A stretch of 64,000 nt of DNA from assembly GCA_965218875.1 (NCBI GenBank), contig CBDCMJ010000001.1:2840-66839 (forward strand), in the 5' to 3' direction. Below, in pieces: positions 10,039 to 50,640 of the stretch (position 1 is its first letter; each line of letters starts with the position of its first letter). The position numbers and the translations under genes were made by a program. This DNA is from Dehalococcoidia bacterium (GTDB lineage Bacteria; Chloroflexota; Dehalococcoidia; Lucifugimonadales; UBA3495). The notes beneath the pieces are model-generated. The model saw only the letters and a list, made by a program, of their open reading frames with translations, searched no databases and was not told the DNA's origin.

Positions 10039-10115
10039 GGGCCTGTAGCTCAGGTGGTTAGAGCGCGGTCCTGATAAGACCGAGGTCGTTGGTTCGAGTC
10101 CATCCAGGCCCACCA
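10039..10115 (+). tRNA. tRNA-Ile (anticodon GAT), CCA encoded
   Basis: Hand-folded cloverleaf. Acceptor GGGCCTG/CAGGCCC, D stem GCTC/GAGC, anticodon stem CGGTC/GACCG with loop CTGATAA, T arm GTTGG-TTCGAGT-CCATC. The T stem has one U.U mismatch. Confidence 0.9.
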
Positions 10116-16659: not shown

Positions 16660-19238
16660 CAGGCGTCACCTCCGGAACCACTCCCCGGCGGGTTGGGGTT
16701 GCGGGTTCGCGTCCGGTGCTGCCCGCCGGTCTGGTCCGTGGCCGGAGGCTGCGCCGGTGGGGAACCATTGGCGTTCTGCCGCTCCGCCAGGAGCCTGCGG
16801 TACTCGCTCACCCTCTGCTCCCCCTCGGCGTTGCCGGCCGCGATCTGGCCGGCGCTGGTGGTGTAGCCACGGGAGGCGTTGCGAACGGCCTCGGCCACCT
16901 CGGGGTCGCCCGGCTCCGGCTTGCGGACCATCATCGAGTAGGCGGGCAGACGCTCCGTCCCCACGGTGGCCCGCACGTAGCACTGATGGACCGGCAATGA
17001 CGTGATGTCGTCCTCGGTCACCCGGTCCTTGCCCAGCTCCCACACCAGCCGGCGGGCGTCGTTACCGGCCACCTGGAACACCGCCAGGCAGCCCAGGTTG
17101 GCCAGGATGGTGTCCTGCATGGTGCGGGAGAGGTCGTCCAGCTTGGCCAGGCTCTGCGTCGCCAGGATGAAACTGGCGCCGTACTTGCCCAGCTCGCTGA
17201 GCATGGACTCGTAATCGACGCCGGGCATGGACTGCATCTCGTCCACGACCACCAGGGCGCCCCGCCGCCGGTGCAGGGGCAGGCTCTCCTGCTCCCGGAT
17301 CACCGAGTCCACCAGGTTGAGCAGGGACGCTCCCACCAGGGCGGCCACGTCCCTGCCCGCCGTCCCCTGGGCGGTGGACACCAGCAGCACGCCGCCCTCC
17401 AGGATGGTCTCCCGCAGGTCGATGGTGGAGCGGGACTGGCCCAGAATGGAGCGGGCGCGCTTGGAGGAGGCGTAGTAGGCCAGGCGGGTCTGCACCGGGG
17501 CCAATGCCTCGGCCCGGTACTGGCGGTGCCAGCCGCCGAAGTCCCGCTCCCACCACTCCATGATGTAGGGGTCGGAGACCTTCGCCAGCACCTCGCCCCG
17601 GAACTTGCCGTCGGAGAGGAGCTTCAGCCCGTCCAGGATGGTGTGCTGGTCGCCGGCGTCGGTGGAAGGGTGGGCGTTGGCCTCGTGCAGGGTCTTGACG
17701 GTGTGCTCCAGGATGGACTGCATCCGTGGACCCCACTGTTCCCACAGGCCCCGCGCCACCCGCACCACCGAGTCGGCGGTGCGGTCCCTATCGGCGAAGA
17801 TGCGGGTGTCCAGCAGGTTGATGCCCGGCGCGCCCTGTTCGTCGGCCAGGTCGATGAGCCTCACTTTGTCGACGATGGACCCGGGGACGTGCTCCAGCAG
17901 CCCGGCCACCAGGTCGGCATGGGGGTCGACGACGATGATGGCGTCGCCGTCCCGGCCCGCCGCCTTCTCCCTGAGCTTGTGGACGACGATGTGGTGCATC
18001 AGGGTGGACTTGCCCATGCGGGTGCGGGCCACGTAGAGATGGTGACGGCGCAGCAGGTCCTCGGGGAAGCGAATCTCCCGGGTCTGCCCGCCGGTGGTGT
18101 CGCCCACCAGCGCGCCCTCGGCAGTGCCCCGGACCGGGGGCAGCAGGGACCTGGAGCCGGAGCGTTCCACCAACGGAGTCTCGTCACGCTCGCCGGGCGG
18201 GTGCCACAGCGTGGCCGCCTCTCGCACCCCCAGGATGCTGCGCTTGCCGAACAGACCCGGCCCGGCGGGGTGCAGGTTGTCCGTGGGAACCAGGGGTTGT
18301 ACGTCGCCGACCTTGAACCTGGCCCCGGCGGGATGATCGAAATGGCGGTAGGCGGCGGCCACCCCTTCCAGCAGTTCCTCGGCCCGCTGGATGCGGCCCC
18401 GTTCCGGCAGGACTGCCACCACCTGCAACTCGGCGTCGAAGGCGATGCGGGAGACCTTCTCCCGTATCAGGATGGGGTCGTAGACCCGGCTGCGGGCCTG
18501 CTTCCAGCGCCACCAGCCCCAGCCCGCCACGGTCAGGCCCAGGACGGAGCCCGCGCCCAGGAGCGACGCCTTGAGGAACTCGCCGTCCTGTACCCACAGG
18601 TAGCCCTTCAGGGCGGCCAGCGCCCCCGCGCCCAGCACGGCCATGGTGACGCCGTCCAGCTGCAGGGGCTTGGTCTGGTAGGTGTAGGAGGGATCGGGCC
18701 GCTGCTGGCCCGGGTTCTTGAAGGCCTTCTGCTGGTGAGCCTGGGACCAGTCGGGACCCAGGGAGCGCAGCAGCAGGCGGGAGACCAGCCGCTCGCCGGG
18801 CCGCAGGTCGCCGAGCGCGCCCAGGAGGGCAATGAGCGGATCGGAGCCGGCGTCCAGCAGGTCGTCGTCCCGGAAGGTGCGCAGGGGGACGAACTCCGGC
18901 CCGCCGGAGCGCAGAGTCAGGCCCCAGGCCTGCTCCCCCGGGTCCAGCCGCAACGGGTCGTCCCCGGGCGGTACCTCGCGGATGCGGGCCTGGGGGTAGT
19001 GGGCGGCCAGCTGTCCCTGGACCACCTGCCGGTCCAGGCAGCGGGCCATCAGGGTGACGCCGCTGGCGTCACCGGCCAGCTCCAGGGAGAAGGGTTCGGG
19101 GACGGCGATGGACTGGAGCAGGTTCTCCACGCCCAGCAGGGTCCGCTCGCCGGTGCGCGGCGGCGTCACCGCCAAAAGGGCCGGAGGACGACGGTTCCGG
19201 GCGTCGCCGAAGATGATTTTCTTCACGTTGATATTCAT
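16659..19238 (-). CDS. Type IV coupling protein (VirD4/TraD/TcpA-like ATPase)
   Basis: N-terminal TM region, Walker A ARTRMGKSTLM, Walker B ALVVVDEMQS. It sits next to VirB4. Confidence 0.75.
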   Translation of the reverse strand: MNINVKKIIFGDARNRRPPALLAVTPPRTGERTLLGVENLLQSIAVPEPFSLELAGDASGVTLMARCLDRQVVQGQLAAHYPQARIREVPPGDDPLRLDPGEQAWGLTLRSGGPEFVPLRTFRDDDLLDAGSDPLIALLGALGDLRPGERLVSRLLLRSLGPDWSQAHQQKAFKNPGQQRPDPSYTYQTKPLQLDGVTMAVLGAGALAALKGYLWVQDGEFLKASLLGAGSVLGLTVAGWGWWRWKQARSRVYDPILIREKVSRIAFDAELQVVAVLPERGRIQRAEELLEGVAAAYRHFDHPAGARFKVGDVQPLVPTDNLHPAGPGLFGKRSILGVREAATLWHPPGERDETPLVERSGSRSLLPPVRGTAEGALVGDTTGGQTREIRFPEDLLRRHHLYVARTRMGKSTLMHHIVVHKLREKAAGRDGDAIIVVDPHADLVAGLLEHVPGSIVDKVRLIDLADEQGAPGINLLDTRIFADRDRTADSVVRVARGLWEQWGPRMQSILEHTVKTLHEANAHPSTDAGDQHTILDGLKLLSDGKFRGEVLAKVSDPYIMEWWERDFGGWHRQYRAEALAPVQTRLAYYASSKRARSILGQSRSTIDLRETILEGGVLLVSTAQGTAGRDVAALVGASLLNLVDSVIREQESLPLHRRRGALVVVDEMQSMPGVDYESMLSELGKYGASFILATQSLAKLDDLSRTMQDTILANLGCLAVFQVAGNDARRLVWELGKDRVTEDDITSLPVHQCYVRATVGTERLPAYSMMVRKPEPGDPEVAEAVRNASRGYTTSAGQIAAGNAEGEQRVSEYRRLLAERQNANGSPPAQPPATDQTGGQHRTRTRNPNPPGSGSGGDA

Positions 19239-29688: not shown

Positions 29689-29895
29689 TCCACTCCCTCT
29701 CCCCCAACCCTCTCCTCTACCGGCCCGCCTTCCCCGGCGGGCCTTCGCGTTTTCAACCACTCTCCTACTGATCCCCTTGGGCTACACCTGCCCATCTCCC
29801 GACGGGGCCTCCCGCCCCGCCGACGGCTTCCAGTGCCGGAAGCCGCACGAACGCCCATCACCCACGGAATTACAACTTCTGCAAGGAGATACGTC

Positions 29896-30777
29896 ATGTC
29901 CAACGAGAACGGCAACGGCAACCACCGCAACGGCGCGAACAACAACGGGCACCAGCGCAACGGCCAGGTCAACGGCAGCGCGAACAGCCACCAGAACGGC
30001 AACGCCAACCACGACATCCCCGCCAACGGCGTGTCCAAGAACGGCAGCAACAACGGCAACGGGCACCAGCCCGCCGACTCCATTCCCGCCCACGACCTCC
30101 TCTGGGACTCCCTGCCCGCCAGCGTCACCGAGAAGCTGGCCCGGCCCCTGGACGCCAGCCTGGTCTCCCAGCGCAGGGGCCGGGGCAACCGGAGTTTCAG
30201 CTACGTCGAGGGCCGCACCGCCATCGACCAGGCCAACCGCATCTTCGGGTTCGGCGGCTGGGGCCACGAGGTGGTGGGCGACGTGCTGCTCAGGGAGCTG
30301 GACCAGGTGAACACCCAGACCGGCGAGGTCAAGCGCATCCGGGCCTACTCCGCCACGGTGAAGGTCACCGTCCCCGGCGCGCCGCCCCGCACCGACGTGG
30401 GTTTCCAGCCGGTCTCCGACGAGACCGCCGAGGGGCATGAGACTGCGTTCAAGGGCGCGGTCACGGACGCTCTCAAGCGGGCGCTCAGGACCTTCGGCGC
30501 CCAGTTCGGCAACGCGCTCTACGGCGACGTGGCAGGCCAGCCCGCCGGCGGCGCCGGCGACACGCTGGCCCCGGCCCTGCGCAAGACCCTGCTGGACCTG
30601 GGGGTCAGCCAGGGCTTCGACGAGGAGAGGGTGCGCCAAGCGGTGCGGGGGCAGACGGGCAAAGACCTGGACGAGCTGCCCGCCTCGGAGCTCACGCCCC
30701 TGGTGGAGCGGGCCGCCCGTAAGGTGCAGCAGCGGCAGGATGCGGAGGCGGGTCAGAACAGCGGCGCCGAACAGTAG
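29896..30777 (+). CDS. Rad52/Rad22-type single-strand annealing protein
   Basis: RSFSYVEGRTAIDQANRIFGFGGWGHEV..KRIRAYSATVKV..GHETAFKGAVTDALKRALRTFG is the Rad52/22 core. The N-terminus is a low-complexity NG-rich segment. An AAGGAG ribosome-binding site is present. Confidence 0.75.
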   Translation: MSNENGNGNHRNGANNNGHQRNGQVNGSANSHQNGNANHDIPANGVSKNGSNNGNGHQPADSIPAHDLLWDSLPASVTEKLARPLDASLVSQRRGRGNRSFSYVEGRTAIDQANRIFGFGGWGHEVVGDVLLRELDQVNTQTGEVKRIRAYSATVKVTVPGAPPRTDVGFQPVSDETAEGHETAFKGAVTDALKRALRTFGAQFGNALYGDVAGQPAGGAGDTLAPALRKTLLDLGVSQGFDEERVRQAVRGQTGKDLDELPASELTPLVERAARKVQQRQDAEAGQNSGAEQ

Positions 30778-35471: not shown

Positions 35472-36506
35472 ATGAGACTGGCTGCACAGGCAAAAGGCGG
35501 GTTTTACCCCACGCCTCCCCGGGTGGTTGACCTGGTTGCCCAACTGCTCTACGGGGCCAGGGGCCGCGCCCGCAGCGTGGACACCCTGCGCATCCTGGAC
35601 CCCTGCTGCGGAGCCGGGGACGCCCTGGCCCAGTTCGCCGACCTGCTGCGCGACCGCGGCACCGTCCCCGTGGAGGCCTGCGGGGTGGAACTGCATAGGG
35701 AGAGGGCGGAGCAGGCCGCCCACGTCCTGGACCGCGCCCTGGCCTGCGACCTCTTCGCCACTTCGATTGCCAACAACGCCTTCGGCGTGCTGCTCTTGAA
35801 CCCTCCCTATGATTGGGACAAAGAAGACAAGCGGGTGGAGCACGCCTTCCTCACGCACACCACGCGCTACCTGACCGACGGCGGGCTGCTGCTGTTCATC
35901 GTGCCGAAGCAGCGCCTCGCCGTCTCCGCCCGCTACCTCTCGTCCCACTACCGGGACCTGCGCTGCTGGGCCTTCCCCAACCCGGAGCGGGAGGTGTTCG
36001 ACCAAGTAATCCTGGTGGGCCGGCGCAAGGGCGAACCCAGCCCCGACCCCTACGCCGAGGAGCAGGTGCGGGAATGGGCCTTCGGAGAGCCGGAGGAGTT
36101 CTCGTACCGTCCCTATCCGGTCTACGACCCGCCGGTGGTTCCCGCCGGCGACATCCTCTTTGCCACCCGCACCGTGGACCCGCTGGCGGCAGTGGCCGAA
36201 GCCAGGAAGGCCGGGCTGTGGGCCAGCCAGGAGGTCAGGGACGCCCTCTGGCCCGCCCAGGACCAGCGCACCCGCCCGTTGATGCCGCTCCGCCGGGGCC
36301 ACATGGCCATGCTGGTGGCGGCGGGTTTCCTCGACAACCTGGTGCTGGAGGCCGACGGCCGGCGCATCCTGGTCAAGGGCCGGACGACGAAGGAGATGGT
36401 GCTGGCCGAGGAGACCGAGAACACCGAGGTCTACCGGGAGCGGCTCCGGACCACCGTGGTCGCCCTGGACCTGGACGGCGGGGAGATCACCGACATCGCC
36501 GCCTAG
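35472..36506 (+). CDS. N6-adenine DNA methyltransferase (orphan, DUF6094-like N-terminus)
   Basis: MRLAAQAKGGFYPTP.., SAM motif LDPCCGAGDAL, catalytic LLLNPPYD. Confidence 0.75.
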   Translation: MRLAAQAKGGFYPTPPRVVDLVAQLLYGARGRARSVDTLRILDPCCGAGDALAQFADLLRDRGTVPVEACGVELHRERAEQAAHVLDRALACDLFATSIANNAFGVLLLNPPYDWDKEDKRVEHAFLTHTTRYLTDGGLLLFIVPKQRLAVSARYLSSHYRDLRCWAFPNPEREVFDQVILVGRRKGEPSPDPYAEEQVREWAFGEPEEFSYRPYPVYDPPVVPAGDILFATRTVDPLAAVAEARKAGLWASQEVRDALWPAQDQRTRPLMPLRRGHMAMLVAAGFLDNLVLEADGRRILVKGRTTKEMVLAEETENTEVYRERLRTTVVALDLDGGEITDIAA

Positions 36507-36640
36507 CTCTCCGCAACGACAACTACCCCGACGGCTGCAACGCCAGCCGCATCACGAAGGCCCCGCCGGTCTCATTCACCGGCGGGGCCTCGCTTTTTCT
36601 CCCTACACCCCACGCAACTTTCCCAACCAGGAGAATACCA

Positions 36641-38524
36641 ATGAACCTATCAGGATTCATCGACCAGTTCAAGGAAGCCATCGCCAAGAGGGTGGTGGAG
36701 TCCTACCCGCCCCTGTACCGGCCCTCGGAAACCCCGGTCAAGCTGCCCAAGCTGCTGCGCACCCCGATGGGCGGCCAGGAGGACGCCATCAAGGGCACGG
36801 CCCTCTCCCTCCAGGCCCATAGGGGCACCACCGTGGTGGGCGAAATGGGAACGGGCAAGACCTTCATCGGCGCCGCCGCCGCCCACGCCGCCGGTTTCTC
36901 GCGGGTCTTGATTCTCTGCCCGCCGCATTTGACCCGAAAGTGGAAGCGGGAGGTGGAGGATACGGTGCCCGGCGCTCGCGCCGCCATCGTCGCCTCCATC
37001 ACCGACCTGGAACGGCTCAGGCTGTCCGTGGGTCCCGCTCCCCTCTTCGCCATCATGTCCCGGGAAAGGGCCAAGCTGTCCTACCGCTGGCAGCCCGCCG
37101 TGGTCCAGCGCTGGGCCGCCGCCGGGGGCCGGCTGGTGCGGGACGAGCAGACCGGGGAACCCTTCCAGGTGCCCTGCTGCCCCCGCTGCTACGCCCAGGT
37201 GGTGGACAAGGACGGCGTGCCCCTGACCAACGAGGAGTTGTCCCGCAAGCGTCGCAACTGCGACCTGTGCAGGTCCGCCCTCTGGCAGGCCGACGGCTCA
37301 GGCCCCAGGCGCTACCCACTGGCCGACTACGTGAAGCACCGGATGAAGGGCTTCTTCGACCTGCTGATTGGCGACGAGGTCCATGAGTACAAGGGCCGTG
37401 GCTCCGCCCAGGGCATCGCCGCCGGGGTGCTGGCCGACTCCTGCGGCAAGTCCCTCACCCTTACCGGAACGCTGACCGGCGGCTACTCCTCGACGCTCTT
37501 CCACCTGCTGTACCGCTTCTCGCCGGACATACGGGCCGAGTTCGAGCGGTCCGAGGAAGGGCGCTGGATTCAGCGCTACGGTTTCCTGGAGCAGACGGTG
37601 CGCCACGAAGGCGACGGCAACTCCTTCGAGGACGGGCGCAACAGCCGCCGCAAGGGATACCGCAAGACGGTGCGGGAAAGGCCCGGCCTGGCGCCCTCGG
37701 CCCTCTTCCACCTGATAGGCAACAGCGTGTTCCTGCGCCTCTCCGACGTGGCCTCGGGGCTGCCGTCCTACGAGGAGCAGGTGCTGCTGTCGGGCATGGA
37801 CCGGGAGACGGACTTCACCGGCTTCTCCCAGCGCAAGGCCTACGACCTGGTGTTCGACACCCTGCGGCAGGCCCTGGCCGAAGCGTTGGCCAAGGGTTCC
37901 AAGCGGCTGCTGGCGACCTACCTGCAAACCCTGCTGGCCTACCCCGACGGCTGCACCCGGGGCGAGACGGTCTTCGATCCCCAGACCGGCAACGTGTTGG
38001 TGCAGATGCCGCCTTTGTCCGAGGACAAACTCTATCCGAAGGAGCAGGCGCTGGTGGACCTGGTGGCGGCGGAGAGGCTGGCGGGACGCAAAGTGCTGGT
38101 CTACGCCACCCACACCGGAACGCGGGACATCACCGAACGGATGGAGCAATTCCTGACCCGGCACGGCTTCCGGGTGGCGGTGCTCAAGGCGGACTCGGTG
38201 GCCCCGGACCGGCGGGAGTCCTGGGTGGAGGAACGGGTCAAGCAGGGGGTGGACGTGGTCATCTGCCATCCCCGCCTGGTGCAGACCGGCCTGGACCTGA
38301 TCGACTTCCCGACCCTCTGTTGGTTCGAGACCGAGTTCTTCGTCTTCCAATCGACACAACAAAGTACGGTTCTCGTGGGTAGTCGACTTGGATGCAACTG
38401 GGGTTCAATAGGTGCAGCAAGCTGTGGAAGCTACGAACCTCCCATCCTCGGTGGACCGAAGAACATTTCTGCCGACCGCCCCTACGGGTCCAAGCCTTCT
38501 CAGGTGGGCCTATTTCGACGGTAG
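36641..38524 (+). pseudogene. SNF2/DEAD-like helicase, C-terminally truncated near 38340
   Basis: Motif I GEMGTGKTF, motif II DEVHEYKG, C-terminal lobe KVLVYATHTG..QTGLDL. The homology-like sequence and high GC stop after ..LCWFETEF. The remaining ORF (FVFQSTQQ..) is AT-rich and has no motif VI. Confidence 0.7.
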
Positions 38525-39384: not shown

Positions 39385-41823
39385 TCAAGGCTTCTCCGCC
39401 CCCGCTCCCTCCTCCTCTCGCGTCTCCCCCTTCGCCATCCGGTAGCCCACGCGAAGCTCGGTGAAGATGTAGGTAGGGTTGGCGGCGGCGTCGCCCAGCT
39501 GGCGGCGGATGACGTTGATTGAGGTTCGCAAGGGCCGCACGTCGGCGTCGCCGTCCGTGCCCCAGACCCGCCTCAGCAGGTGCTCGTAGGTCACCACCCG
39601 GCCGGCGTTCACCGAGAGTTCGACGAGCAGACGGTACTGGATTGCAGCCAGGTTTATCGGCTTGCCTGCAAGCGTCACGAGGCGCTCGGCGTAGTTGATT
39701 GTCAGGTCCCCCAGGACATAGGGCACTTGCGGCTCGGACATAGTGCGTCTGCGAAGCGACGCCCCGATGCGGGCCACAAGCTCGGTCGGCGAGAAGGGTT
39801 TGACGACGTAGTCGTCCGCTCCCATCTGGAAGGCCCTGGCGATGAGCCGGTCCTGGCCGTAAGCGGACACGAATATTACCGGCACGTCTCTCGCGGCCAC
39901 GATGTCCTTCATCAGGTCGATCCCGTCGACTCCCGGCAGCATCAGGTCGAGGAGGACCAGATGGGGCCTTTCCTCTTCCATGAGGCGCAGCCCATCTTCC
40001 GGGTCACTGGTTGCGATCACCGTGTAGCCCGCCTCGATCAGGGCGTCCCGGATGTACCTGAGCGCCTGCAGGTCGTCGTCCACCACCAGAATGCGAACCT
40101 GTTCCCGCACCGACCTGCGTGAAGGTCTCGTGGAGAGCTGAGGGGATGGGGCCGGGGAGACGTATCCTGAGGCTTCCACCGTCGGAAGGGTGAAAGTAAA
40201 GGTGGCGCCCAGTCCCGGACCTTCGCTCTCGACCCATATCCGTCCCCCGTGCGCCTCGACTATCCCCTTGCAGACCGCGAGGCCGAGCCCGGTGTCTCCT
40301 CCCTGCTCCTCGCTCTCCAACCGGGAGAACTTCCGAAACAGGTGCGGCAGGCTCTCGGCGGGAATGCCCCTGCCGTCGTCGGAGACCGACACCGAGACAT
40401 GGAGGTCGCCGGGGCCGGCGCTCACCCTTATGGTGGACGACTCCGGTGAGTGCCTGGCCGCGTTGGTCAGCAGGTTGTCCAGCACCTGGACGATGCGCGA
40501 TCTGTCGGCCATAACCCAGGGCAGGTCGGACGGGATCTCGACGCGGAGGTTGTGACTGTTCCCGCCGATGCGGAAGTTTCTACCGGCCTCGCCTGTCAGG
40601 GCCGCGAGGTCCGTGGGCTCCGGAGCGACCGGAAGGTTTCCCGTATCTATGCGAGCAACGTCGAGGAGATCTGCGATCAGCGCGCTCATCCGGTCACTCT
40701 GCTCGAAGATGATCCTATGAAACTGGTGCACTTCGGCCGGGTTCATTTTCGAGGACCTGTCCAGCAGCGTGGAGACCGAACCCCTGACCGTGGCCAGGGG
40801 GGTGCGCAGCTCGTGGCTCACCATGGCCAGGAACTCGGCCCGCATCCGCTCGACCTCCTCTATCTCAGTCATGTCCTGGAGGGTCACGATCAAGTTCTCG
40901 ACTCCGTCGGCATCCGAGGGGGTGGGCGTGGCGTTCATCACCGCGCTGATGCTCCGCCCGTCAGGAGCCTTTAGGACAACCTCCTCGGCGCGGACAGTCT
41001 TTCCGGCGCTGAAGTCCTGGGCCATTGGCAACTCCCCAAGGAAGACCTCCTGTCCTTCGCCACGTTGGACTTTCACCGTCTTGAGGAATTGGTCTGGTTG
41101 GATGTCGGATTCCCTCAGGCTATCGAGCATTCGCACCGCCTCCCGGTTGAACGACAACGGGTCGCCAGTCCTCCCATCAAGTACGGCGACACCCACAGGA
41201 CATATGCCCATAAGCGATTCCAGATCGATTTTGACCCGCCGCACAAGCCGGCGCTTAAGTGCGTCGGACACTAGCGGCGCAGCCTGGGATGCCGCCGACT
41301 CGATGATGGCCTCGTCCTCTTGAGAGAACTTGCCGCCACGCTCCTTTGTGGCTAGGAAAAAGCTTCCGACCTGCGATCCGCCATGGCGGATCGGCGTCAC
41401 CATGAGGGTTTCATACGGCGGAGGGTCTCCCGTATGTCCGAGCGACCTGCTGTAGCTCGCCAGGTCGTCAAGCCTCAGCGTTTCTTGCACGCGGCTGAGC
41501 TGCAGGAGCAAGTCCTCCGCCTGGACCATGTCCCCACCACCGTACCTTTGCTCAGGGGTGAGGCCGTGAGAGAAAAACTCCACCGGCTGGCCGGATTCGT
41601 CGATGGTCGCAATTCCCCCATATCTGGCCTCCACCAGCGCGCAGGCTCTGGCAAGCTCCCCCTCCAACATTGAGTCTTGTCCGATGCCTCCGGTTCTCCC
41701 AACGCCGGCCTCGCTCAGCTGGGACAGCCGTTCCCGCAGGGCCTGGATCTCTCGCAGCAGTTCGTCTTCTCGGTCCACTCTCAAACCTCCATCGGGCAGG
41801 AGATGGCCAGCACTCCCGTCCAT
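39385..41823 (-). CDS. Fused sensor histidine kinase and OmpR-type response regulator (GAF/PAS-HisKA-HATPase-REC-winged helix)
   Basis: H-box FLAMVSHELRTPL. HATPase motifs NLLTNAARHSP, DDGRGIP, GLGLAVCKG. REC segment ILVVDDD..LLDLMLPGVDG..KPF. C-terminal OmpR-type wHTH ..LLRRVWG..LRVGYRM. Confidence 0.85.
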   Translation of the reverse strand: MDGSAGHLLPDGGLRVDREDELLREIQALRERLSQLSEAGVGRTGGIGQDSMLEGELARACALVEARYGGIATIDESGQPVEFFSHGLTPEQRYGGGDMVQAEDLLLQLSRVQETLRLDDLASYSRSLGHTGDPPPYETLMVTPIRHGGSQVGSFFLATKERGGKFSQEDEAIIESAASQAAPLVSDALKRRLVRRVKIDLESLMGICPVGVAVLDGRTGDPLSFNREAVRMLDSLRESDIQPDQFLKTVKVQRGEGQEVFLGELPMAQDFSAGKTVRAEEVVLKAPDGRSISAVMNATPTPSDADGVENLIVTLQDMTEIEEVERMRAEFLAMVSHELRTPLATVRGSVSTLLDRSSKMNPAEVHQFHRIIFEQSDRMSALIADLLDVARIDTGNLPVAPEPTDLAALTGEAGRNFRIGGNSHNLRVEIPSDLPWVMADRSRIVQVLDNLLTNAARHSPESSTIRVSAGPGDLHVSVSVSDDGRGIPAESLPHLFRKFSRLESEEQGGDTGLGLAVCKGIVEAHGGRIWVESEGPGLGATFTFTLPTVEASGYVSPAPSPQLSTRPSRRSVREQVRILVVDDDLQALRYIRDALIEAGYTVIATSDPEDGLRLMEEERPHLVLLDLMLPGVDGIDLMKDIVAARDVPVIFVSAYGQDRLIARAFQMGADDYVVKPFSPTELVARIGASLRRRTMSEPQVPYVLGDLTINYAERLVTLAGKPINLAAIQYRLLVELSVNAGRVVTYEHLLRRVWGTDGDADVRPLRTSINVIRRQLGDAAANPTYIFTELRVGYRMAKGETREEEGAGAEKP

Positions 41824-41866
41824 CTCGCCCTGCAGAATGGGACCCGGATTGCGGGCAAACCGGAGT

Positions 41867-41938
41867 GATTATACTCAGATTATATAAACATTACAAGAAT
41901 CAGTCGAAATTCCCACAATTCCTTACGGCCAGATTACA
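41867..41938 (+). promoter_or_regulatory. GATTATA direct repeats in the divergent intergenic region
   Basis: GATTATA occurs at 41867 and 41878 (11-nt phasing), and GATTACA at 41932. The surrounding stretch is AT-rich and lies between the kinase/regulator gene and the giant ORF. Confidence 0.35.
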
Positions 41939-42063
41939 CCGGCCTTGTACAATGCAGTGACGATAGAAGACCTGTACTGGGAGAGGACAACATCAACTGG
42001 CAGGCCATGGCCATTCGGCTCGGTCGAGAATGCCTGGTTCGCCTTATAGGAGACCCATCTGAA

Positions 42064-45000
42064 ATGAAGGTCATCAACATGGCGCGAAAATACCTGCCCC
42101 TGCCCCCCCCCCCCCGACTTTTGCCCTTCGGAATCGCCGGTTGGCTGGCGTGGGGCATCGCCCGTTCGGCATTGCGAGGTTCGCGGGTGAGCGCGCCCAT
42201 ACGTCAGGTGCCGGCGTTGGTCCTCACGGCGGCGCTGCTTCTGGCCGCCATCGCCGCACTGCCGGCGCTGCCCCTGCAGGCGCAGACGCCAGCGGCTGAA
42301 CTCAGCGGGCTGAGCCTGAGTTCCGGCACACTGCGTCCCACGTTCGCCGCCGCTACTACGGAGTACCGGGCTGCGGTCAACTACAGCGTCAACCGGATCA
42401 CCGTGACCGCCACGGCAGCGATCGGCGTCACGGTGGAATACCTGGACGCTACGGACATCGCTCTGGACGACGCTGACATCAATGCCACCGGGTTCCAGGT
42501 GGACCTCGCAGTTGGCGAGACAGCGTTCAAGGCCAAGGTCACCAGCGGCACTGATACCGAGACTTACACGGTGACCGTCGAGCGGGACTCGGCGCACATC
42601 TTCGGCTGGACCCCGAGCAGGGACATCAATGCACTGGAGGCTGCGGGCAACGCAAGCCCCCAGGGCATATGGTCCGAGGGGACCACTATGTGGGTGGCCG
42701 ACGATGACGACGACAAGCTCTACGCCTACACGCTAGCGACCGACGCCCGCGATGCAACCAGGGACATCAGCCTGCACAGCGACAACGGCGACCCGCAGGG
42801 CATCTGGTCCGACGAGACAACCATATGGGTGGCCGATGATGACGACGACAAACTCTACGCCTACGCGTTGAGCGGCGGAGCACGCGACGCGAGCAAGGAA
42901 TTCAGCCTGCACGCCGACAACGGCGATCCGGCCGGCATCTGGTCCGACGGGATGACCATCTGGGTTGCCGAAAGCAGCGGCTCTCCCCGTAAGGTCTTCG
43001 CCTACACATTGAGTGGCGGCGCGAACGACACTGACAAGGAGTTCGTATCCAACTGGATCCCGGTTGGCATCTGGTCCCACGGGACGACCATGTGGGTGGT
43101 CAACGACGTCGGCGTCAATGTGGGGCTTCGTGTCGAAGCCTACACGATCGATCTGAATACCGACGGAACAGCGGGCCCCAACCACGGCCATCGGGACACC
43201 GACAAGCTCTTCGGGCTGCGCTCCACGCGCGGGACCACCCCGATGGGCATCTGGTCGGATGGCAAGGGCGCCGTGTGGATAACGGCCCCGGACGGCCCCA
43301 AGGTCGAGTCCTACCACATGTTGCCGTTCTCCGCTGGCAGCACCACACTGAGCACTCTGACCATCACCGATGGGACGAGCGACTCAGCGCTACGCCCAGC
43401 GTTCGCCTCGACCACGCTGAGCTACCGCACGTCGGTCACTGACGACGTCAACCGGGTGACTGTCAGCGCGACTCCCAGCGACAGCACGGCCACATTGGCC
43501 TACCTGGATGCGAACGGCGAAGCGCTGGAGGATGCCGACTCCAACACTACCGGGTTCCAGGTGGATGTGGGCGTGGGGACGACGGGGATTCAGGTCCTGG
43601 TTACGACGCACGATGGATTTGCGTTTATCCACAGGGTCGTTGTGGAGCGTGACTCAGGCCGGCCGGGCGGCTGGACGCCAACCAATGACCTGTACGACCT
43701 GGATCCCATAGCCGTCAACTATCCCGCAGGCATCTGGTCTGACGGGACCACGATGTGGCTGACGAACCATAGCAAATCGACAGTCTTTGCCTACACGCTG
43801 GCAACCAGCTTGCGCGACACATCGAAGGAATTCTCTCTGCATACCGACAACGACGATCCATGGGGATTGTGGTCCGATGGAACAACGATCTGGGTTGTCG
43901 ACAAAACGGACAAGAAAGTCTACGCCTATACACTGGACACAGGCGCACGGGATGCAACACAGGACATCGACCTGGACTCCACCATCGATGAAGCCCGGGG
44001 CATCTGGTCCGATGAGACGACAGTGTGGATTGCCGACCGTTTTGGCACCCAGCTCTACGCTTACACGCTATCCACTGGCGCACGGGACACCACCAAGGAG
44101 TTCGCTCTGGCAGCGAACTCCGAAATAACGGGTATTTGGTCGGATGGAACCATCCTGTGGGTGGCGGACCGTCTCGCCGACACACTATATGCCTACCAGT
44201 TGGCCGATGGCGCCCGCGACCTGGCCAGAGACATCGAATTGGTCCTACCTTCTCCAGAGGGCGTTTGGGGACGGGGGAGCACGATATGGGTAGCTGATGC
44301 CGGCTTTGCCTTTTATGGACTTTCAACAGCGTTGCACCGGGTCACCTCTTACCGGTTGCCCCCCTCGTCCCCGAACGATATCACACTCAGCAGCCTGAGC
44401 CTGTCGCCCTCTCCACTGGTGCCTTCCTTCACTGCGAACCTTCGCCCGGCATTCTCTTTCGCTCGCGTTGCCTACCGGGTCGCTGTTCCGAACCGGGCCG
44501 GCCGGGTGACCGTCAACGCTGCAGCAAGCAACAGCGCAACGACGGTGGCCTACCAGGATGCAAACGGAGACGTGCTGGAGGACGCCGACTCCAACGCTTC
44601 GGGTTTCCAGGTGGATGTGGCCATGGGGGAGACGTCGATCAGTATCAGGCTTGCCTCCGGTGGTACGGCGCTCACCTACACCGTGGTTGTGGAGCGTGAT
44701 TCGGCCGCGCTCTACGGCTGGACCCCGACCAGTGACCTCAACGACCTTCTACAGGACAACCCAGCCCTCGCTGGCGATAGGATCAGAGGTGTATGGGCTG
44801 ACGAAACGACAATCTATGTGATTGGTCATTTCGAGCCGATGGTTTTCGCCTACACACGGGCCGACGGTTCACGCGATGAGAGCAAGGACATCACGACCAA
44901 TCAGGGTTCGCTCGCAGGCGGTTTGGACGACGGCGGCAAAGCGGGCATCTGGTCGGATGGGATGACGATGTGGGTGCTGAACTACGTCTATGGCGAGGAC

Positions 45001-48000
45001 ATGAACGGGGTGGACGATCCTAATGGCTCCGGCAAGTTGTTCGCCTACACACTGAGCGACGGCGCGCGCGACACTACTAAGGAGATCCCCCTCAATTTGA
45101 CTAGTTATGATGGTGCGAGGGGCATCTGGTCGAACGGGACCACCATTTGGGTATCGGACTGGATAGACGCCAAGTTGTTCGCCTACACCCTGGCCACAGG
45201 CGCGCGCGTGCCAGCCAGCGACATTACCCTGCACCACTTGAACGACAGCGCCCAGGGCATCTGGTCCGACGGGACCACCATCTGGGTTGCCCAATGGAAT
45301 TCCCACAGGGTTTACGCCTACACACTGGCCACTGGCGCATACGACCCCGACAGGGGATTCGACCTAGCGCCAGGCAACCGTTACCCACGTGACATGTGGT
45401 CTGACAGGGCGACGCTATTCGTGCCAGACCATTTTCAGAAGGTTTTCTCCTACAACATGCCGCCCTCCAGCAACGCCCGGCTGCGCGAGCTGGAGTTGAC
45501 CGGGATCGTGCTGGATCCAATGTTCGACGGCGGCATATTCAGCTACGGCACCACCTCCGTCGCCACCAGCCAGACGGAGGTAACGGCGGTTCCCAGCGAT
45601 CCCGACGCTACCTATGTGGTCAAGTTGAACGGGGTCGAGGACGACGACGGCACGGTGGACTTCGAGGGGTGCGGTGACGTCGTCTCGGTGGAGGTTACGG
45701 CGGCGGACGGGATGACGACGCAGACCTACACGGTGACCATCCCGGCGCATGCCACCGACGTCCCTGACCTGTCGGCCGACGCCCAGACGCTGGGAGAGGT
45801 GGACATCGGAGGGAAAGCGTGCAGCCAGATTGACCACACTCACGATGTTGACTGGTTCGCGGTGGATCTGGTTGCGGGGAGCACTTACGTCATCGACCTC
45901 GAGGGAAAGGCCACTAACGCCGGCACCCTGTTCGATCCGATACTGAGCGGCGTGTATGTCACGCCGAAGGGGGGCACAGAGCAGATCATCGGCAGTCCTC
46001 GCGGCATCCGGGATGACAACGACGGTGAGGGCAACAACAGCCGCCTGATGTTCTACGTCGTGGAATCGGGCAGGTACTATATCGCCGTACGGGGTTTCAG
46101 CCTCCATACCGGCACCTACGTGTTGAGTGTGAATCAAAGAACCCTCGACGACCTGAGGCCCATCGTTTACCCCAACGACCCGAGCTATGACCGCCCCAAC
46201 GTCCCAGCAGTCGGCGAACCCCAAGACCAATCGGGCCACCCGTTGATCCTGCTGCGTGCGGCGCCGGCCCCGGACCCGGGACCCCTGGGTTCGGATATGC
46301 CCGAGGACACGACCACCACCGCGACGGTGATCGTGAACGGAGTGAACAACGACGACCCCGGTGATGACGGACGCTACCACGGGCAGATCGACCACCACTA
46401 CGACCGGGACTGGGTCCGGGTGTGGCTGAGGTCCGGGAGGGCCTACGTGATCCACATGCTGGGCGCTGGGAACGCTTGGAGCGAGGATGAGAACAGTTGG
46501 CGCCTGACCTTGGAGGGGCCGCAGATTGGAGGGGTTTTCCTCGTTGACCGGGTCGCCGGAGACCCCTATCCCTACGGTCTGCCTGGAACCGACGGGGAAC
46601 CCACCAACGACGAGTGGGGGGCCGGACCGCAGTCGGCGGCCTACTTCACGGCCACTGAGACCGGCTGGCACTACATCCAGGCTCAGGGCCAGTCCGTCGT
46701 ACAAACCGGCACCTATGCGGTGCACGTGTTCAACCTCGCGAACCCATGGGGCGGCCCATCCCCCGCGCCAACGTCGGCCCAGAGCACCGGGGAGACCCCC
46801 GGGCGGCCCAAGGGTCTGACTGGTACCGTGGCACACGACGCCGTGGCCCTGACCTGGGATGATCCCGAGGACGCCAGCATCACTGGTTATCAGATACTGA
46901 GGTTGGACCGGGATGTGCATGGTGTGGGGAACTTCCAGGTCCACGTGGAGGACACGGGGAGCGCGACGGCGGCGTATGTTGACCGGGAGGTTGAGCCGGA
47001 GACTCGCTACATCTACCGGATCAAGGCGCGCAACGCGGTGGGGCTGAGCGCGCGCAGCAAATACTTCAATGCCAACACGCCGCCGGCGCCGGATGCGGAG
47101 CCCAACACCCCGGCCACGGGAGCGCCGTCCATTACGGGCACCGCCGTGGTGGGTGGGACGCTGACGGCCGATGTCTCGGGGATAGAGGACGCCGACGGGC
47201 TGAGCGGCGCGGTGTACAGCTACCAATGGATGATCAGCTTGGAAACGGCGAGCGCCGACATACCGGGGGCGACGGGAGCCACCTACAGCCCGGTGGCCTC
47301 CGACGAGGGATTGGCCATCAGTGTGCGAGTCAGCTTCACGGACGACGCGGGCAACGCGGAGAGTCTGACCAGCGCGGAGACGGAGCCGGTGGGCTATGCG
47401 GTGCAGGCGCAAGTGGCGAACACCCCGGCCACGGGAGCGCCGACGATCGGCGGCAACCCGCGGGTGGGCGAAGCGCTGAGGGCGTCTACATCCGGCATCG
47501 CCGACCAAGACGGATTGAGCAACGCAGTTTACCAATACCAGTGGCTGGCTGACGACACCGAAATCGCCGGAGCCACCGCCGCGGCCTACACCCTGGTAGA
47601 TGACGACGCGGGCAAGGCCATCAAGGTGCAGGTGTCCTTCACGGACGACGCGGGCAACGAGGAGAGTCTGACCAGCGCGGCCACGGTAGCGGTGGAGGCC
47701 CGGCCCAACACTCCGGCCACCGGCGCGCCCACCATCAGCGGGATCGCCCAAGTGGGCGAGACGCTGACGGCGAACACATCAGGGGTCGCCGACGCGGACG
47801 GGCTTAGCAACGTCCAGTACGAGTACCAGTGGCTTGCGGACGACTCCGACATCTCGGGAGCGACCAACGCCACCTACACCCTGACCGATAGCGAAGAAAG
47901 CAAGGCCATTACGGTGCAGGTGAGCTTCACCGACGACGCCGATAACGAGGAGACGCTGACCAGCGCGGCAACGGACGCGGTGGCCGGTGCGCAACCCACG

Positions 48001-50640
48001 GAGCCGCCCGCCAAGCCCAGGAATCTCTCCGCCACGGCGTCGCACGACTCGGTGACCCTCACCTGGGACGACCCCGGCGACGACTCCATCACCGGCTACG
48101 TCATCCTGCGGCGCAACCGCGCGACCACCGACCCGGGCGAGTTCACCGAACTGGTGGCCGATACGGGCAGCGCCGCGACCACCTACACCGACCACAGCGT
48201 GTCGGCCGAAACTCTCTACACCTACCGGATCAAGGCCATCAACGGGCACGGGGTGAGCGAGCTCTCCCGCTGGGTGCGGGCCGACACCCCGGCGCCTCCC
48301 GTCCCCGCGCCGCCCACGGGCCTGACCGCCACGGCGTCCCACCACCAGGTGGTCCTCAGCTGGGACGACCCCCAGGACGACACCATCACCGGCTACGTCA
48401 TCCTGCGGCGCAACCGGTCGACCACCGCCCCGGGCGAGTTCACCGAATTGGTGGCTGATACGGGCAGCGCCGCGAACGCCTACACCGACGACAGCGTGTC
48501 GGCCGACACTTCCTACACCTACAAGATCAGGGCCATCAACGGGCACGGGGTGAGCGAGCTCTCCCGCTGGGCGCGGGCCGACACACCGGCTCCTTCCCCG
48601 GCGAACAGCCCGGCCACGGGAGCGCCGACCATCGCAGGAACGGTCCAGGTGGGCTCGACGCTGACGGCGGACACCTCCGGCATCGTCGACCAGGACGGGT
48701 TGACCAACGTTGCCTACAGCTACCAGTGGCTGGCCGACGATGCCGACATCGCCGGAGCGACGGACTCCAGCTACACCCCGACCGATGGCGACGAGGGCGC
48801 AATCATCAAGCTGCGGGTGAGCTTCACCGACGACGCCGGCAACGAGGAGACGCTGACCAGCGTGGCGACGGATACGGTGGAGGTCCGACCCAACAGCCCG
48901 GCCACGGGAGCGCCGACCATCGCAGGAACGGCGCAGGTGGGCGAGACCCTGACGGCGGACACGTCGGGCATCGTCGACCAGGACGGGTTGACCAACGTTG
49001 CCTACAGCTACCAGTGGCTGGCCGACGATGCCGACATCGCCGGAGCGACGGACTCCAGCTACACCCCGACCGATGGCGACGAGGGCGCAATCATCAAGCT
49101 GCGGGTGTCCTTCACCGACGACGCGGGCAACGAGGAGACGATGACCAGCGCGGCGACGGAGCCGGTCGGCTTCGCGGTCCAGCAACAGATCGTGAACACG
49201 CCCGCCACTGGCCAACCCACCATCTCTGGCATGGCGCAGGTGGGCGAGACGCTGACGGCGGACACGTCGGGCATCTCCGACGTCGACGGGCTGAGCAGCG
49301 CTTCCTACAGCTATCAGTGGCTGGCCGACGACGCTGCAATTACCGGCGCCACCGCGACGACCTACACCCTGACCGACAGCGAACAAGGCAAGACCGTCAA
49401 GGTGCGGGTGTCCTTCACGGACGACGCCGGCAACGAGGAGACGCTGACCAGCGTGGCGACGGATACGGTGGAGGCCCGACCCAACAGCCCGGCCACGGGA
49501 GCGCCGACCATCGCAGGAACGGCGCAGGTGGGCGAGACCCTGACGGCGGACACGTCGGGCATCGTCGACCAGGACGGGTTGACCAACGTTGCCTACAGCT
49601 ACCAGTGGCTGGCCGACGATGCCGACATCGCCGGAGCGACGGACTCCAGCTACACCCCGACCGATGGCGACGAGGGCGCAATCATCAAGGTGCGGGTGTC
49701 CTTCACGGACGACGCCGGCAACGAGGAGACGCTGACCAGCGTGGCGACGGATACGGTGGAGGCCCGACCCAACAGCCCGGCCACGGGAGCGCCGACCATC
49801 GCAGGAACGGCGCAGGTGGGCGAGACCCTGACGGCGGACACGTCGGGCATCGCCGACGGTGACGGGTTGACCAACGCTGCCTACAGCTACCAGTGGCTGG
49901 CCGACGATGCCGACATCGCCGGAGCGACGGACTCCAGCTACACCCCGACCGATGGCGACGAGGGCGCAATCATCAAGCTGCGGGTGTCCTTCACCGACGA
50001 CGCCGGCAACGAGGAGACGCTGACCAGCGCGGCAACGGATACGGTGGAGGCCCGACCCAACAGCCCGGCCACCGGCCAGCCGACCATTGTAGGAACGGAG
50101 CAGGTGGGCGAGACGCTGACGGCGGACACCTCCGGCATCGCCGACCAGGACAGGCTGAGCAGCGTTTCCTACAGCTATCAGTGGCTGGCCGACGACGCTG
50201 CAATTACCGGCGCCACCGCGACGACCTACACCCTGACCGACAGCGAACAAGGCAAGACCGTCAAGGTGCGGGTGTCCTTCACGGACGATGCCGGCAATGA
50301 TGAGAGTCTGACCAGCGCAGCCACCGGTACGGTGGAGGCGCGACCCAACAGTCCGGCCACCGGCGCGCCCGTCATTGTGGGCACGGCCCGGGTGGGCGAG
50401 ACGCTGACGGCGGACACCTCGGGCATCGCCGACGCTGACGGGTTGAGCAGCGCGGTCTACCACTACCAGTGGATCGTTAGCGACGGCGGCGCTGACCTCG
50501 TGGTCCCGGGCGCGAAGGCGTCGACCTACACTGTGCTCGCGATCGACCGGATGCTCGTCATCAAGGTGAGGGTCCACGTCACTGATGACCGCGGGCACGT
50601 GGAGACGCTAACCAGCGCGCCGACCGCGGTGGTCCGCTGA
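42064..50640 (+). CDS. Giant secreted/surface repeat protein (about 2,860 aa)
   Basis: It has a signal-like segment VPALVLTAALLLAAIAALPALPLQAQT and 4 cadherin-like beta-sandwich-type modules. Three blocks of five GIWSDGTT(I/M)WVAD..KLYAYTL repeats follow, then two PPC-like modules (DVDWFAV.., DRDWVRV..). It also has 3 Fn3 modules and ten 96-aa PNSPATGAPTI.G..VGETLTADTSGI.D.DGL repeats. The start is uncertain: ATG 42064, ATG 42079 or GTG around 42187. Confidence 0.85.
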   Translation: MKVINMARKYLPLPPPPRLLPFGIAGWLAWGIARSALRGSRVSAPIRQVPALVLTAALLLAAIAALPALPLQAQTPAAELSGLSLSSGTLRPTFAAATTEYRAAVNYSVNRITVTATAAIGVTVEYLDATDIALDDADINATGFQVDLAVGETAFKAKVTSGTDTETYTVTVERDSAHIFGWTPSRDINALEAAGNASPQGIWSEGTTMWVADDDDDKLYAYTLATDARDATRDISLHSDNGDPQGIWSDETTIWVADDDDDKLYAYALSGGARDASKEFSLHADNGDPAGIWSDGMTIWVAESSGSPRKVFAYTLSGGANDTDKEFVSNWIPVGIWSHGTTMWVVNDVGVNVGLRVEAYTIDLNTDGTAGPNHGHRDTDKLFGLRSTRGTTPMGIWSDGKGAVWITAPDGPKVESYHMLPFSAGSTTLSTLTITDGTSDSALRPAFASTTLSYRTSVTDDVNRVTVSATPSDSTATLAYLDANGEALEDADSNTTGFQVDVGVGTTGIQVLVTTHDGFAFIHRVVVERDSGRPGGWTPTNDLYDLDPIAVNYPAGIWSDGTTMWLTNHSKSTVFAYTLATSLRDTSKEFSLHTDNDDPWGLWSDGTTIWVVDKTDKKVYAYTLDTGARDATQDIDLDSTIDEARGIWSDETTVWIADRFGTQLYAYTLSTGARDTTKEFALAANSEITGIWSDGTILWVADRLADTLYAYQLADGARDLARDIELVLPSPEGVWGRGSTIWVADAGFAFYGLSTALHRVTSYRLPPSSPNDITLSSLSLSPSPLVPSFTANLRPAFSFARVAYRVAVPNRAGRVTVNAAASNSATTVAYQDANGDVLEDADSNASGFQVDVAMGETSISIRLASGGTALTYTVVVERDSAALYGWTPTSDLNDLLQDNPALAGDRIRGVWADETTIYVIGHFEPMVFAYTRADGSRDESKDITTNQGSLAGGLDDGGKAGIWSDGMTMWVLNYVYGEDMNGVDDPNGSGKLFAYTLSDGARDTTKEIPLNLTSYDGARGIWSNGTTIWVSDWIDAKLFAYTLATGARVPASDITLHHLNDSAQGIWSDGTTIWVAQWNSHRVYAYTLATGAYDPDRGFDLAPGNRYPRDMWSDRATLFVPDHFQKVFSYNMPPSSNARLRELELTGIVLDPMFDGGIFSYGTTSVATSQTEVTAVPSDPDATYVVKLNGVEDDDGTVDFEGCGDVVSVEVTAADGMTTQTYTVTIPAHATDVPDLSADAQTLGEVDIGGKACSQIDHTHDVDWFAVDLVAGSTYVIDLEGKATNAGTLFDPILSGVYVTPKGGTEQIIGSPRGIRDDNDGEGNNSRLMFYVVESGRYYIAVRGFSLHTGTYVLSVNQRTLDDLRPIVYPNDPSYDRPNVPAVGEPQDQSGHPLILLRAAPAPDPGPLGSDMPEDTTTTATVIVNGVNNDDPGDDGRYHGQIDHHYDRDWVRVWLRSGRAYVIHMLGAGNAWSEDENSWRLTLEGPQIGGVFLVDRVAGDPYPYGLPGTDGEPTNDEWGAGPQSAAYFTATETGWHYIQAQGQSVVQTGTYAVHVFNLANPWGGPSPAPTSAQSTGETPGRPKGLTGTVAHDAVALTWDDPEDASITGYQILRLDRDVHGVGNFQVHVEDTGSATAAYVDREVEPETRYIYRIKARNAVGLSARSKYFNANTPPAPDAEPNTPATGAPSITGTAVVGGTLTADVSGIEDADGLSGAVYSYQWMISLETASADIPGATGATYSPVASDEGLAISVRVSFTDDAGNAESLTSAETEPVGYAVQAQVANTPATGAPTIGGNPRVGEALRASTSGIADQDGLSNAVYQYQWLADDTEIAGATAAAYTLVDDDAGKAIKVQVSFTDDAGNEESLTSAATVAVEARPNTPATGAPTISGIAQVGETLTANTSGVADADGLSNVQYEYQWLADDSDISGATNATYTLTDSEESKAITVQVSFTDDADNEETLTSAATDAVAGAQPTEPPAKPRNLSATASHDSVTLTWDDPGDDSITGYVILRRNRATTDPGEFTELVADTGSAATTYTDHSVSAETLYTYRIKAINGHGVSELSRWVRADTPAPPVPAPPTGLTATASHHQVVLSWDDPQDDTITGYVILRRNRSTTAPGEFTELVADTGSAANAYTDDSVSADTSYTYKIRAINGHGVSELSRWARADTPAPSPANSPATGAPTIAGTVQVGSTLTADTSGIVDQDGLTNVAYSYQWLADDADIAGATDSSYTPTDGDEGAIIKLRVSFTDDAGNEETLTSVATDTVEVRPNSPATGAPTIAGTAQVGETLTADTSGIVDQDGLTNVAYSYQWLADDADIAGATDSSYTPTDGDEGAIIKLRVSFTDDAGNEETMTSAATEPVGFAVQQQIVNTPATGQPTISGMAQVGETLTADTSGISDVDGLSSASYSYQWLADDAAITGATATTYTLTDSEQGKTVKVRVSFTDDAGNEETLTSVATDTVEARPNSPATGAPTIAGTAQVGETLTADTSGIVDQDGLTNVAYSYQWLADDADIAGATDSSYTPTDGDEGAIIKVRVSFTDDAGNEETLTSVATDTVEARPNSPATGAPTIAGTAQVGETLTADTSGIADGDGLTNAAYSYQWLADDADIAGATDSSYTPTDGDEGAIIKLRVSFTDDAGNEETLTSAATDTVEARPNSPATGQPTIVGTEQVGETLTADTSGIADQDRLSSVSYSYQWLADDAAITGATATTYTLTDSEQGKTVKVRVSFTDDAGNDESLTSAATGTVEARPNSPATGAPVIVGTARVGETLTADTSGIADADGLSSAVYHYQWIVSDGGADLVVPGAKASTYTVLAIDRMLVIKVRVHVTDDRGHVETLTSAPTAVVR
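42103..42115 (+). repeat. C13 homopolymer tract
   Basis: There are 13 consecutive C. They encode PPPP in the 42007/42064 frame, upstream of the signal-peptide-like segment. Confidence 0.95.
48597..50637 (+). repeat. Tandem 288-bp (96-codon) coding repeats, seven units, several nearly identical
   Basis: The unit ..PNSPATGAPTIAGTAQVGETLTADTSGIVDQDGLTNVAYSYQWLADDADIAGATDSSYTPTDGDEGAIIK.RVSFTDDAGNEETLTSVATDTVEAR recurs almost verbatim. Three more diverged units lie at about 47098-47990. Confidence 0.9.

Follow-up and report, generated by a model that had tools for sequence, protein, structure and literature searches.

A poly-C tract upstream of a giant secreted protein gene in a Dehalococcoidia bacterium: a probable contingency locus of the promoter or leader type

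A stretch of 64,000 nucleotides (nt) from a Dehalococcoidia bacterium (GenBank assembly GCA_965218875.1, contig CBDCMJ010000001.1, positions 2,840 to 66,839), here called the window, contains an uninterrupted run of exactly 13 C on the plus strand at 42103–42115. The tract is located upstream of a gene encoding a giant secreted protein of 2817 amino acids (42187–50640, plus strand), delimited by its open reading frame (ORF), Pfam matches and homologues. Comparison with related loci suggests that this is probably a homopolymeric-tract contingency locus of the promoter or leader type. We give even odds, a probability of about 0.5, to the proposal that tract length modulates the expression of the giant gene, as a contingency-type switch on transcription or on the mRNA leader. 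Two features expected of contingency loci are present: a repeat far longer than composition predicts, and a position 5' of a secreted product. Tracts of C6 to C24 are found 23–199 nt 5' of large secreted proteins in related sponge Dehalococcoidia. Judged from the sequences compared, the locus is one member of a lineage-wide class: long G/C tracts that precede genes for large secreted proteins whose adhesion domains are eukaryote-like.

The tract is the sole homopolymer longer than 7 in the window, the next longest being one G7 and fourteen C6. On the strand of the divergently transcribed kinase gene it reads G13. Its context is ...GAAAATACCTGCCCCTG-C13-GACTTTTGCCCTTCGGAATCG, with ...CCTGCCCCTG just 5' and GACTTTTGCCC just 3' of the run. 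The 3' flank is pyrimidine-rich and begins with GACTTTTGCCCTTCGGA (42116–42132, plus strand), which recurs beside tracts of different length elsewhere, both at further loci and in further strains. The sequence bears out the initial annotation, which had placed the 13 C after in-frame ATGs at 42064 and 42079 and before a segment resembling a signal peptide. Homopolymers are error-prone, an Illumina contig of the comparison set (L042) opens with C50, and some sequencing runs are rich in poly-C or poly-G words, all of which would suit an artefact of assembly or sequencing. Against this, a 768-nt Logan contig from an independent public run (X1) spans 41962–42729 with zero differences and includes the exact C13 with both flanks, and the tract is therefore genuine. 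Tracts also occur at orthologous positions in chromosome-level and in k-mer/NODE metagenome-assembled genomes (MAGs), taken as long- and short-read assemblies. An artefact has next to no probability.

The position of the tract relative to the gene depends on the start codon. GTG 42187 is the best-supported start, because it is preceded at 8 nt by a GAGG Shine-Dalgarno (SD) sequence (42175–42178, plus strand) and opens a putative signal peptide that aligns with homologues, and because the upstream extension is not conserved. The signal peptide, MSAPIRQVPALVLTAALLLAAIAALPALPLQA followed by QT (42187–42282, plus strand; n-h-c pattern judged by eye, without a predictor), aligns with the N-termini of the closest homologues, namely P0005 (MKGPFTRGAFTALAALVALTLTAVPLQA followed by QT), P0002 and the L010 protein. 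The closest of all, L082/P0005, is 78% identical at the amino acid level; the stretch from tract to start, read as protein, has no similarity between the window and L082/P0005. With GTG 42187 as the start, the tract sits in leader or promoter DNA outside the translated gene, 71 nt 5' of the start codon, and 42116–42186 (plus strand) would be a 71-nt untranslated leader or promoter-proximal region. The tract is therefore not located inside a translated frame, the defining trait of an intragenic frameshift switch. The initial annotation had kept such a leader or promoter position as its fallback, which the SD sequence, signal peptide and homologue alignment now favour.

Its first suggestion was that a change of one C would uncouple the ATG starts at 42064 and 42079 from the ORF. 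In this reading translation would begin at one of these ATGs, the tract would encode PPPP in an N-terminal extension and a frameshift would switch the protein off. The ORF indeed stays open from 42007 through the assembled tract to 50640, and a third in-frame ATG occurs at 42007. In two relatives (L010 and L084, see below) an upstream ORF with a GGAGG-ATG start enters the tract, in frame in L084 and out of frame at the G21 of L010. Both proposed ATGs are in frame as claimed, but they lie within a mobile-element fragment (42052–42102) that is missing from other alleles, so they are hardly native starts of the gene. Furthermore, by our own estimate 60 codons would be free of stops by chance with a probability of about 0.18, given the GC content, the extension lacks similarity to L082, a good SD sequence and signal peptide are found at 42187, and in most relatives the tract is located 5' of the SD sequence, only 23–40 nt from the start. 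This frameshift explanation is consequently very improbable for the window.

The recurrence of long tracts was assessed in 80 loci around kinase relatives and four around homologues of the giant protein; together these cover 1.75 Mb. Up to length 7, the number of G/C runs in this set drops geometrically, each further base lowering it by a factor of about 0.19. Beyond this decay there is a separate tail of 7 runs of 9, 5 runs of 10 and 12 runs of 12–50 bases; for runs of 12 or more, 12 were observed where the decay predicts 0.02. The longest A/T run is at most 8. Tracts oriented as poly-C precede genes for signal-peptide proteins of 313–3122 amino acids at ten loci (L022, L028, L038, L040, L044, L046, L047, L056, L057 and L066). 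The distance to the start is 23 nt in L056 (a protein of 1727 amino acids), 32 nt in L057 (967 amino acids), 35 nt in L022, 40 nt in L028, 84 nt in L046 and about 190–199 nt in L038, L040, L044 (3122 amino acids) and L047. All long tracts away from contig ends (11/11) stand 5' of secreted or membrane proteins, and the sense strand is poly-C at all secreted-gene loci but one. When five tract-associated proteins were compared with Pfam, four had fn3, cadherin or Calx-beta domains, and that of L057 had no match. Among homologues of the giant gene, L082 has C10, 59 nt 5' of its ATG and on the same strand as in the window; L081 and L083 have no run. No further copies of GACTTTTGCCCTTCGGA were found in the compared loci. 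The contig of L042, NODE-named (SPAdes-style) and from a MAG, has its C50 at positions 1–50, 328 nt 5' of the kinase gene, where assembly either broke off at a genuine tract or produced a poly-G/C artefact.

Tract length varies between close relatives. In L044 and L047 it is C12 and C14 with flanks 97% identical, in L028 and L029 it is 24 and 16 (flanks 94%), and in L040 and L041 it is 10 and 13 (flanks 93–94%). At 80–89% flank identity, L048, L038 and L044 have 6, 9 and 12. Contigs with the exact right flank of the window and other left flanks carry C14 (X1 rec6) and C17 (X5 rec13, from another host), and a contig from a third host (X18 rec2) has C18 followed by the identical 17-mer GACTTTTGCCCTTCGGA. 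The C14 allele in X1 reads ...GATCGCCTA-C14-GACTTTTGCCC, with different sequence 5' of the tract and the same SD sequence and start. In a low-depth C14 contig from X1, 42127–42177 (51 nt) are replaced by 74 other nt with SD sequence and start intact, which looks like a second allele or a paralogue of the leader. Three 31-mer unitigs from X1 are offset by one base each, with depths of 60, 34.5 and 12.5; taken from these offsets, the unitig letters not being displayed, they suggest an abundant allele set with at least 13, 14 and 15 C. At L010 the MAG has C21-GACTTTCGCGG, and four runs of one sample gave contigs with C20 (the main 3.5-kb contig, X18), C21, C22 and C23; contigs in two of the runs break at the tract.

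The initial annotation had proposed comparing tract lengths among strains, and this comparison gives C10 in L082, C14, C17 and C18 in alleles sharing the right flank, and C20–C23 at L010. It had also held that a single fixed length together with tract-less orthologues, or an assembly artefact, would speak against a switch; what we find is an exact copy in X1 and orthologous tracts of variable length. Its idea of a hypermutable contingency-type tract serving a surface protein is in this respect supported by the comparative length variation, but not the frameshift mechanism attached to it.

Upstream, the tract is abutted by what the repeat-family comparison indicates is a one-ended remnant of an insertion sequence (IS) and not native gene sequence. 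This remnant (42052–42102, minus strand) corresponds to the terminal ~50 bp of an IS family with a DDE transposase (PF01609), identified from its repeat family and comparison with L056 and L079. Its tip points to the tract and lacks the final ~4 nt (CTGA). The segment matches, at 85–93% identity, a family whose copies add up to a depth of more than 1000 in sponge metagenomes and there always have flanks other than those in the window, and it matches L056 13100–13146 at 85%. One family member ends ...ACATACCCTTGTCAG, which is the inverted repeat of complete 1.33-kb PF01609 elements in L079, and its tip is identical over 17 nt to the IS end in L079 with the adjoining G's. It is because of this identity that the segment is assigned to an IS. 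It resembles the terminal inverted repeat region (CTGACARGGG...) of IS4/IS5-type DDE elements. The complete copies in L079 have inverted repeats of 17–21 nt and PF01609 transposases; the window has only the one-ended fragment of ~50 bp without a transposase, rather than terminal inverted repeats around one. The wobble-like differences within the 42055–42102 family had raised the possibility of a protein-coding fragment. This was dropped, given a frame-breaking indel in L056 and the identity of the tip to the L079 inverted repeat. A tblastn search with a 23-residue peptide returned noise only, and a metagenome scan with an 18-mer core of the family gave 120 matches, none belonging to the family, the pattern being too short.

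Association of this IS family with G/C runs is seen elsewhere. In L079 (2720–6755) three tandem 1.33-kb PF01609 copies, with inverted repeats CTGACAAGGGTATGTAA and CTTAGAGGGGTAGGTA..., are each flanked by G runs in the order G10, IS, G7 CTTAGAGG, IS, GGG, IS variant, G8. The set interrupts an N6_N4 DNA methylase gene precisely where a G run codes for Gly; when the two parts are rejoined through G7, G10 or G13, the gene again reads ...MDGVFVGG(G)EFRNEIIW... in frame. In L056 about 230 bp of IS end abut a G8 5' of a secreted gene, and in run X7 poly-C follows directly after an IS tip. Since L079, L056, X7 and the window all have an IS end at a run, a target preference of the PF01609 family for G/C runs is suggested. 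To our knowledge, such a preference is not a described property of this family.

These insertions invite the explanation that the tract is a neutral by-product, either a scar or target-site duplication left, or a run lengthened, by an IS that seeks G tracts, or else a run maintained by slippage in tolerant DNA. The IS ends abutting the tract of the window and the G8 of L056 would fit, as would the copy between G10 and G7 in L079, the methylase gene split at a G run by the tandem copies, and the IS tip in X7. So would the absence of the tract-bearing segment from some orthologous spacers, with neither gene lost. However, most tracts have no IS sequence alongside (the L022/L028, L044 and L040 groups, L057, L082 and the C14 allele in X1). 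Uninterrupted tracts also persist at orthologous sites across 70–97% flank identity, and the 17-nt flank is unchanged beside tracts of varied length in symbionts of different hosts. The consistent placement 5' of secreted or membrane proteins and the prevalence of sense poly-C likewise speak against a neutral origin. We regard this explanation, the main rival, as unlikely, though it retains a considerable minority share of the probability.

Alternatively, the tract may act in the RNA, as an unstructured poly-C leader that affects Rho loading, premature termination or translation and is tuned by its length. The strong strand bias towards sense poly-C is consistent with such a role, and so is the pyrimidine-rich flank that follows the tract. 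Folding of seven leaders predicted the poly-C to be unpaired in most of them. It did not, however, pair the poly-C consistently with the ribosome-binding site, and the L010 tract is poly-G on the sense strand; the proposal moreover assumes that the tract is transcribed. We therefore consider this RNA role improbable. Sequestration of the SD sequence by poly-C was dropped as a candidate, as the seven folded leaders had neither consistent pairing with the ribosome-binding site nor unusual stability.

Several observations weigh against a length-dependent switch at the window. The first concerns dispensability. A tract-bearing segment of about 180–240 nt that is present in L038, L044, L047 and L048 is missing from L033 and L051 (9560–10010), with a TTCCGC microhomology at the L033 junction. 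These spacers keep the kinase promoter and a proximal leader of ~130 nt, and since both genes are retained, the tract appears to be dispensable there. Among secreted genes paired with the kinase, only 5/45 have a run of 8 or more. Consensus scans for sigma-70 promoters and terminators found no promoter for the giant gene near the tract, nor in L028, L044, L057 or L082. For the tract of the window itself only C13 was seen, in Logan contigs at a strain depth of ~2–7x, and the spread of lengths at L010 could partly come from slippage during sequencing or library PCR. Finally, in the clade of L010 and L084 the tract module is on the opposite strand relative to the gene, so that L010 has poly-G on the sense strand. 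In this clade (L010 21402–21480; L084 4001–4070) an upstream ORF with a strong GGAGG-ATG start runs into the tract, which is interrupted in L084 (GGGGAGGTGAGCG) and in frame with the adhesin ORF, and which in L010 is a G21 out of frame (G19 or G22 would fit). A frameshift switch is possible in these two relatives.

Searches for other kinds of element were negative. Rfam gave no match in or near the tract (whole window at the gathering threshold; 41750–42350 at E ≤ 10), and when the surroundings of the tract were searched for inverted repeats, nothing pointed to a repeat-bounded invertible segment. Neither the minus-strand ORFs across the tract nor the 60-codon upstream extension matched Pfam. 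A metagenome scan with a 28-mer from the leader of the window gave 0 matches.

Regulation of the giant gene by tract length would proceed as follows. Slipped-strand mispairing would add or remove C's in the tract, and the altered length would change the geometry of promoter-proximal elements. Expression of the giant gene would thereby go up or down without a frameshift. A candidate regulator is the neighbouring response regulator with its OmpR-type DNA-binding domain. A more far-reaching version can be imagined, in which a TA-C(n)-GACTTT... module in either orientation serves as a switch throughout the sponge-associated Dehalococcoidia, with giant adhesins paired with dedicated kinase hybrids, with slippage that would vary the set of adhesins produced, and with a DDE IS that seeks G/C runs and would further rewire or lengthen the tracts. 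We judge this broader scheme improbable.

Sponge–symbiont recognition is believed to be mediated by proteins that carry eukaryote-like adhesion domains, and host-adapted pathogens supply many documented cases of homopolymer contingency loci. A full-text literature search found no report of such loci for sponge symbionts or Chloroflexota. If the tracts switch or grade expression, uncultured mutualists would share the strategy of stochastic surface variation with pathogens, and long-read metagenomes would reveal this variation directly through their tract-length profiles. That the IS family apparently targets G/C runs is a further point that can be tested separately.

The giant protein combines four beta-sandwich domains of cadherin-like type with propeller-like GIWSDGTTxWV repeats, one PPC and three fn3 domains, and a long C-terminal array of more than 12 Ig-like repeats of about 95 amino acids each. 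Exact-sequence look-ups of the kinase and of the giant protein with several start choices gave no recorded match. The ~95-residue repeats at 47288–50640 hardly differ from one another, and in sponge runs the depth of their words rises into the thousands. Contigs from X1 and X3 (depth ~20) link 47965 to 50344, leaving out 2378 nt, which suggests that alleles with fewer C-terminal repeats exist. In runs X1–X5 the depth of the giant gene is ~0.1–0.7x that of the kinase flank, and the commoner variant of this flank departs after 42020 (42020/42021) into TGTTGGCCGAGGGACATCGG.... The lower depth indicates that the presence of the giant gene, or the content after 42020, probably differs between strains. 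Many homologues (L081–L084 and P0001–P0116; contigs 3–6x by name) have frameshifted tails, with the giant gene divided into consecutive ORFs, and these could be homopolymer errors or real pseudogenes.

The divergent gene encodes a hybrid histidine kinase/response regulator with the architecture GAF-HisKA-HATPase-REC-Trans_reg_C (39385–41778, minus strand), starting at GTG 41778 with a GGAGG. In the 409-bp spacer between the two genes, the tract is assigned to the side of the giant gene because it is 71 nt from that gene and 325 nt from the kinase start. Consensus scanning placed two overlapping sigma-70-like promoters of the kinase, TCGACT-17-TATAAT and TTGTAA-17-TATAAT, at 41868–41907 (minus strand), ~100 nt from the kinase start. 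These are conserved across loci, and TATAAT and TTGTGA are enriched at this position in 79 loci. The best matches to the kinase, 70–79% identical, are from MAGs of sponge-associated Dehalococcoidia, and the runs containing sequence of the window are labelled as sponge or host organism. A divergent secreted-protein gene accompanies the kinase orthologues and paralogues in 45/58 scorable loci. Hexamers of the TTGTGA/TATAAT type are common ~40–230 nt 5' of the kinase starts in L001–L080, and the same promoters contain direct repeats, GTGAnnnTAT or TGTAAG, spaced ~11 and 22 nt, which may be autoregulatory boxes for the response regulator. In the L044 group a box, GTGACGATAT, that resembles the GTGAnnnTAT boxes is located directly beside the tract. 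Further away in the window, a tRNA-Ile (10039–10115) is followed by a block of higher GC (0.66–0.70). It includes genes for a TraG/TrwB-like coupling protein (16659–19238, minus strand) and a Rad52/22-like recombinase (29833–30777, plus strand) and a ResIII helicase-like ORF (35813–38524, plus strand). The region 10039–38524 looks like an integrated mobile island beside the kinase-adhesin pair.

Among known systems, the poly-C or poly-G length in the promoters of Neisseria meningitidis opc and porA reportedly sets the level of these outer-surface proteins. There the tract is located at or between defined -35 and -10 hexamers, whereas scans around the tract of the window found no such hexamers for the giant gene. 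Intragenic homopolymer switches are known from Neisseria pilC and from contingency genes of Helicobacter and Campylobacter. They resemble the window in that a surface or regulatory gene has a long G/C run at its 5' end; their tract, however, is within the translated frame, and that of the window is 5' of the best-supported start. The C-tract of Bordetella bvgS is likewise an intragenic homopolymer frameshift switch (PMC1891110). In Bordetella, transcription of the fim genes is set by C-stretches that reach C19 and separate the activator region from the -10 box (PMC1891110), and tracts 21–80 nt from a start codon, the range into which that of the window falls, were the class in which overlap with promoters was judged likeliest in that genus (Gogol et al. 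2007, PMC1891110). In comparison with fim, consensus scans found no -10 box for the giant gene of the window, the organism is an uncultured Chloroflexota symbiont, the gene encodes a giant multi-domain adhesin-like protein instead of a fimbrial subunit, and its module occurs in either orientation. As for shared features, fim2, fim3 and fimX of B. pertussis and B. bronchiseptica have a long poly-C a few tens of nt 5' of a gene for a secreted surface structure, polymorphic in length among strains (Willems et al. 1990; PMC1891110). The fim genes depend on a two-component response regulator, and a kinase/response-regulator hybrid is adjacent to the tract of the window, with a putative regulatory link. 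Because of this adjacent hybrid, we consider Bordetella fim the closest analogue.

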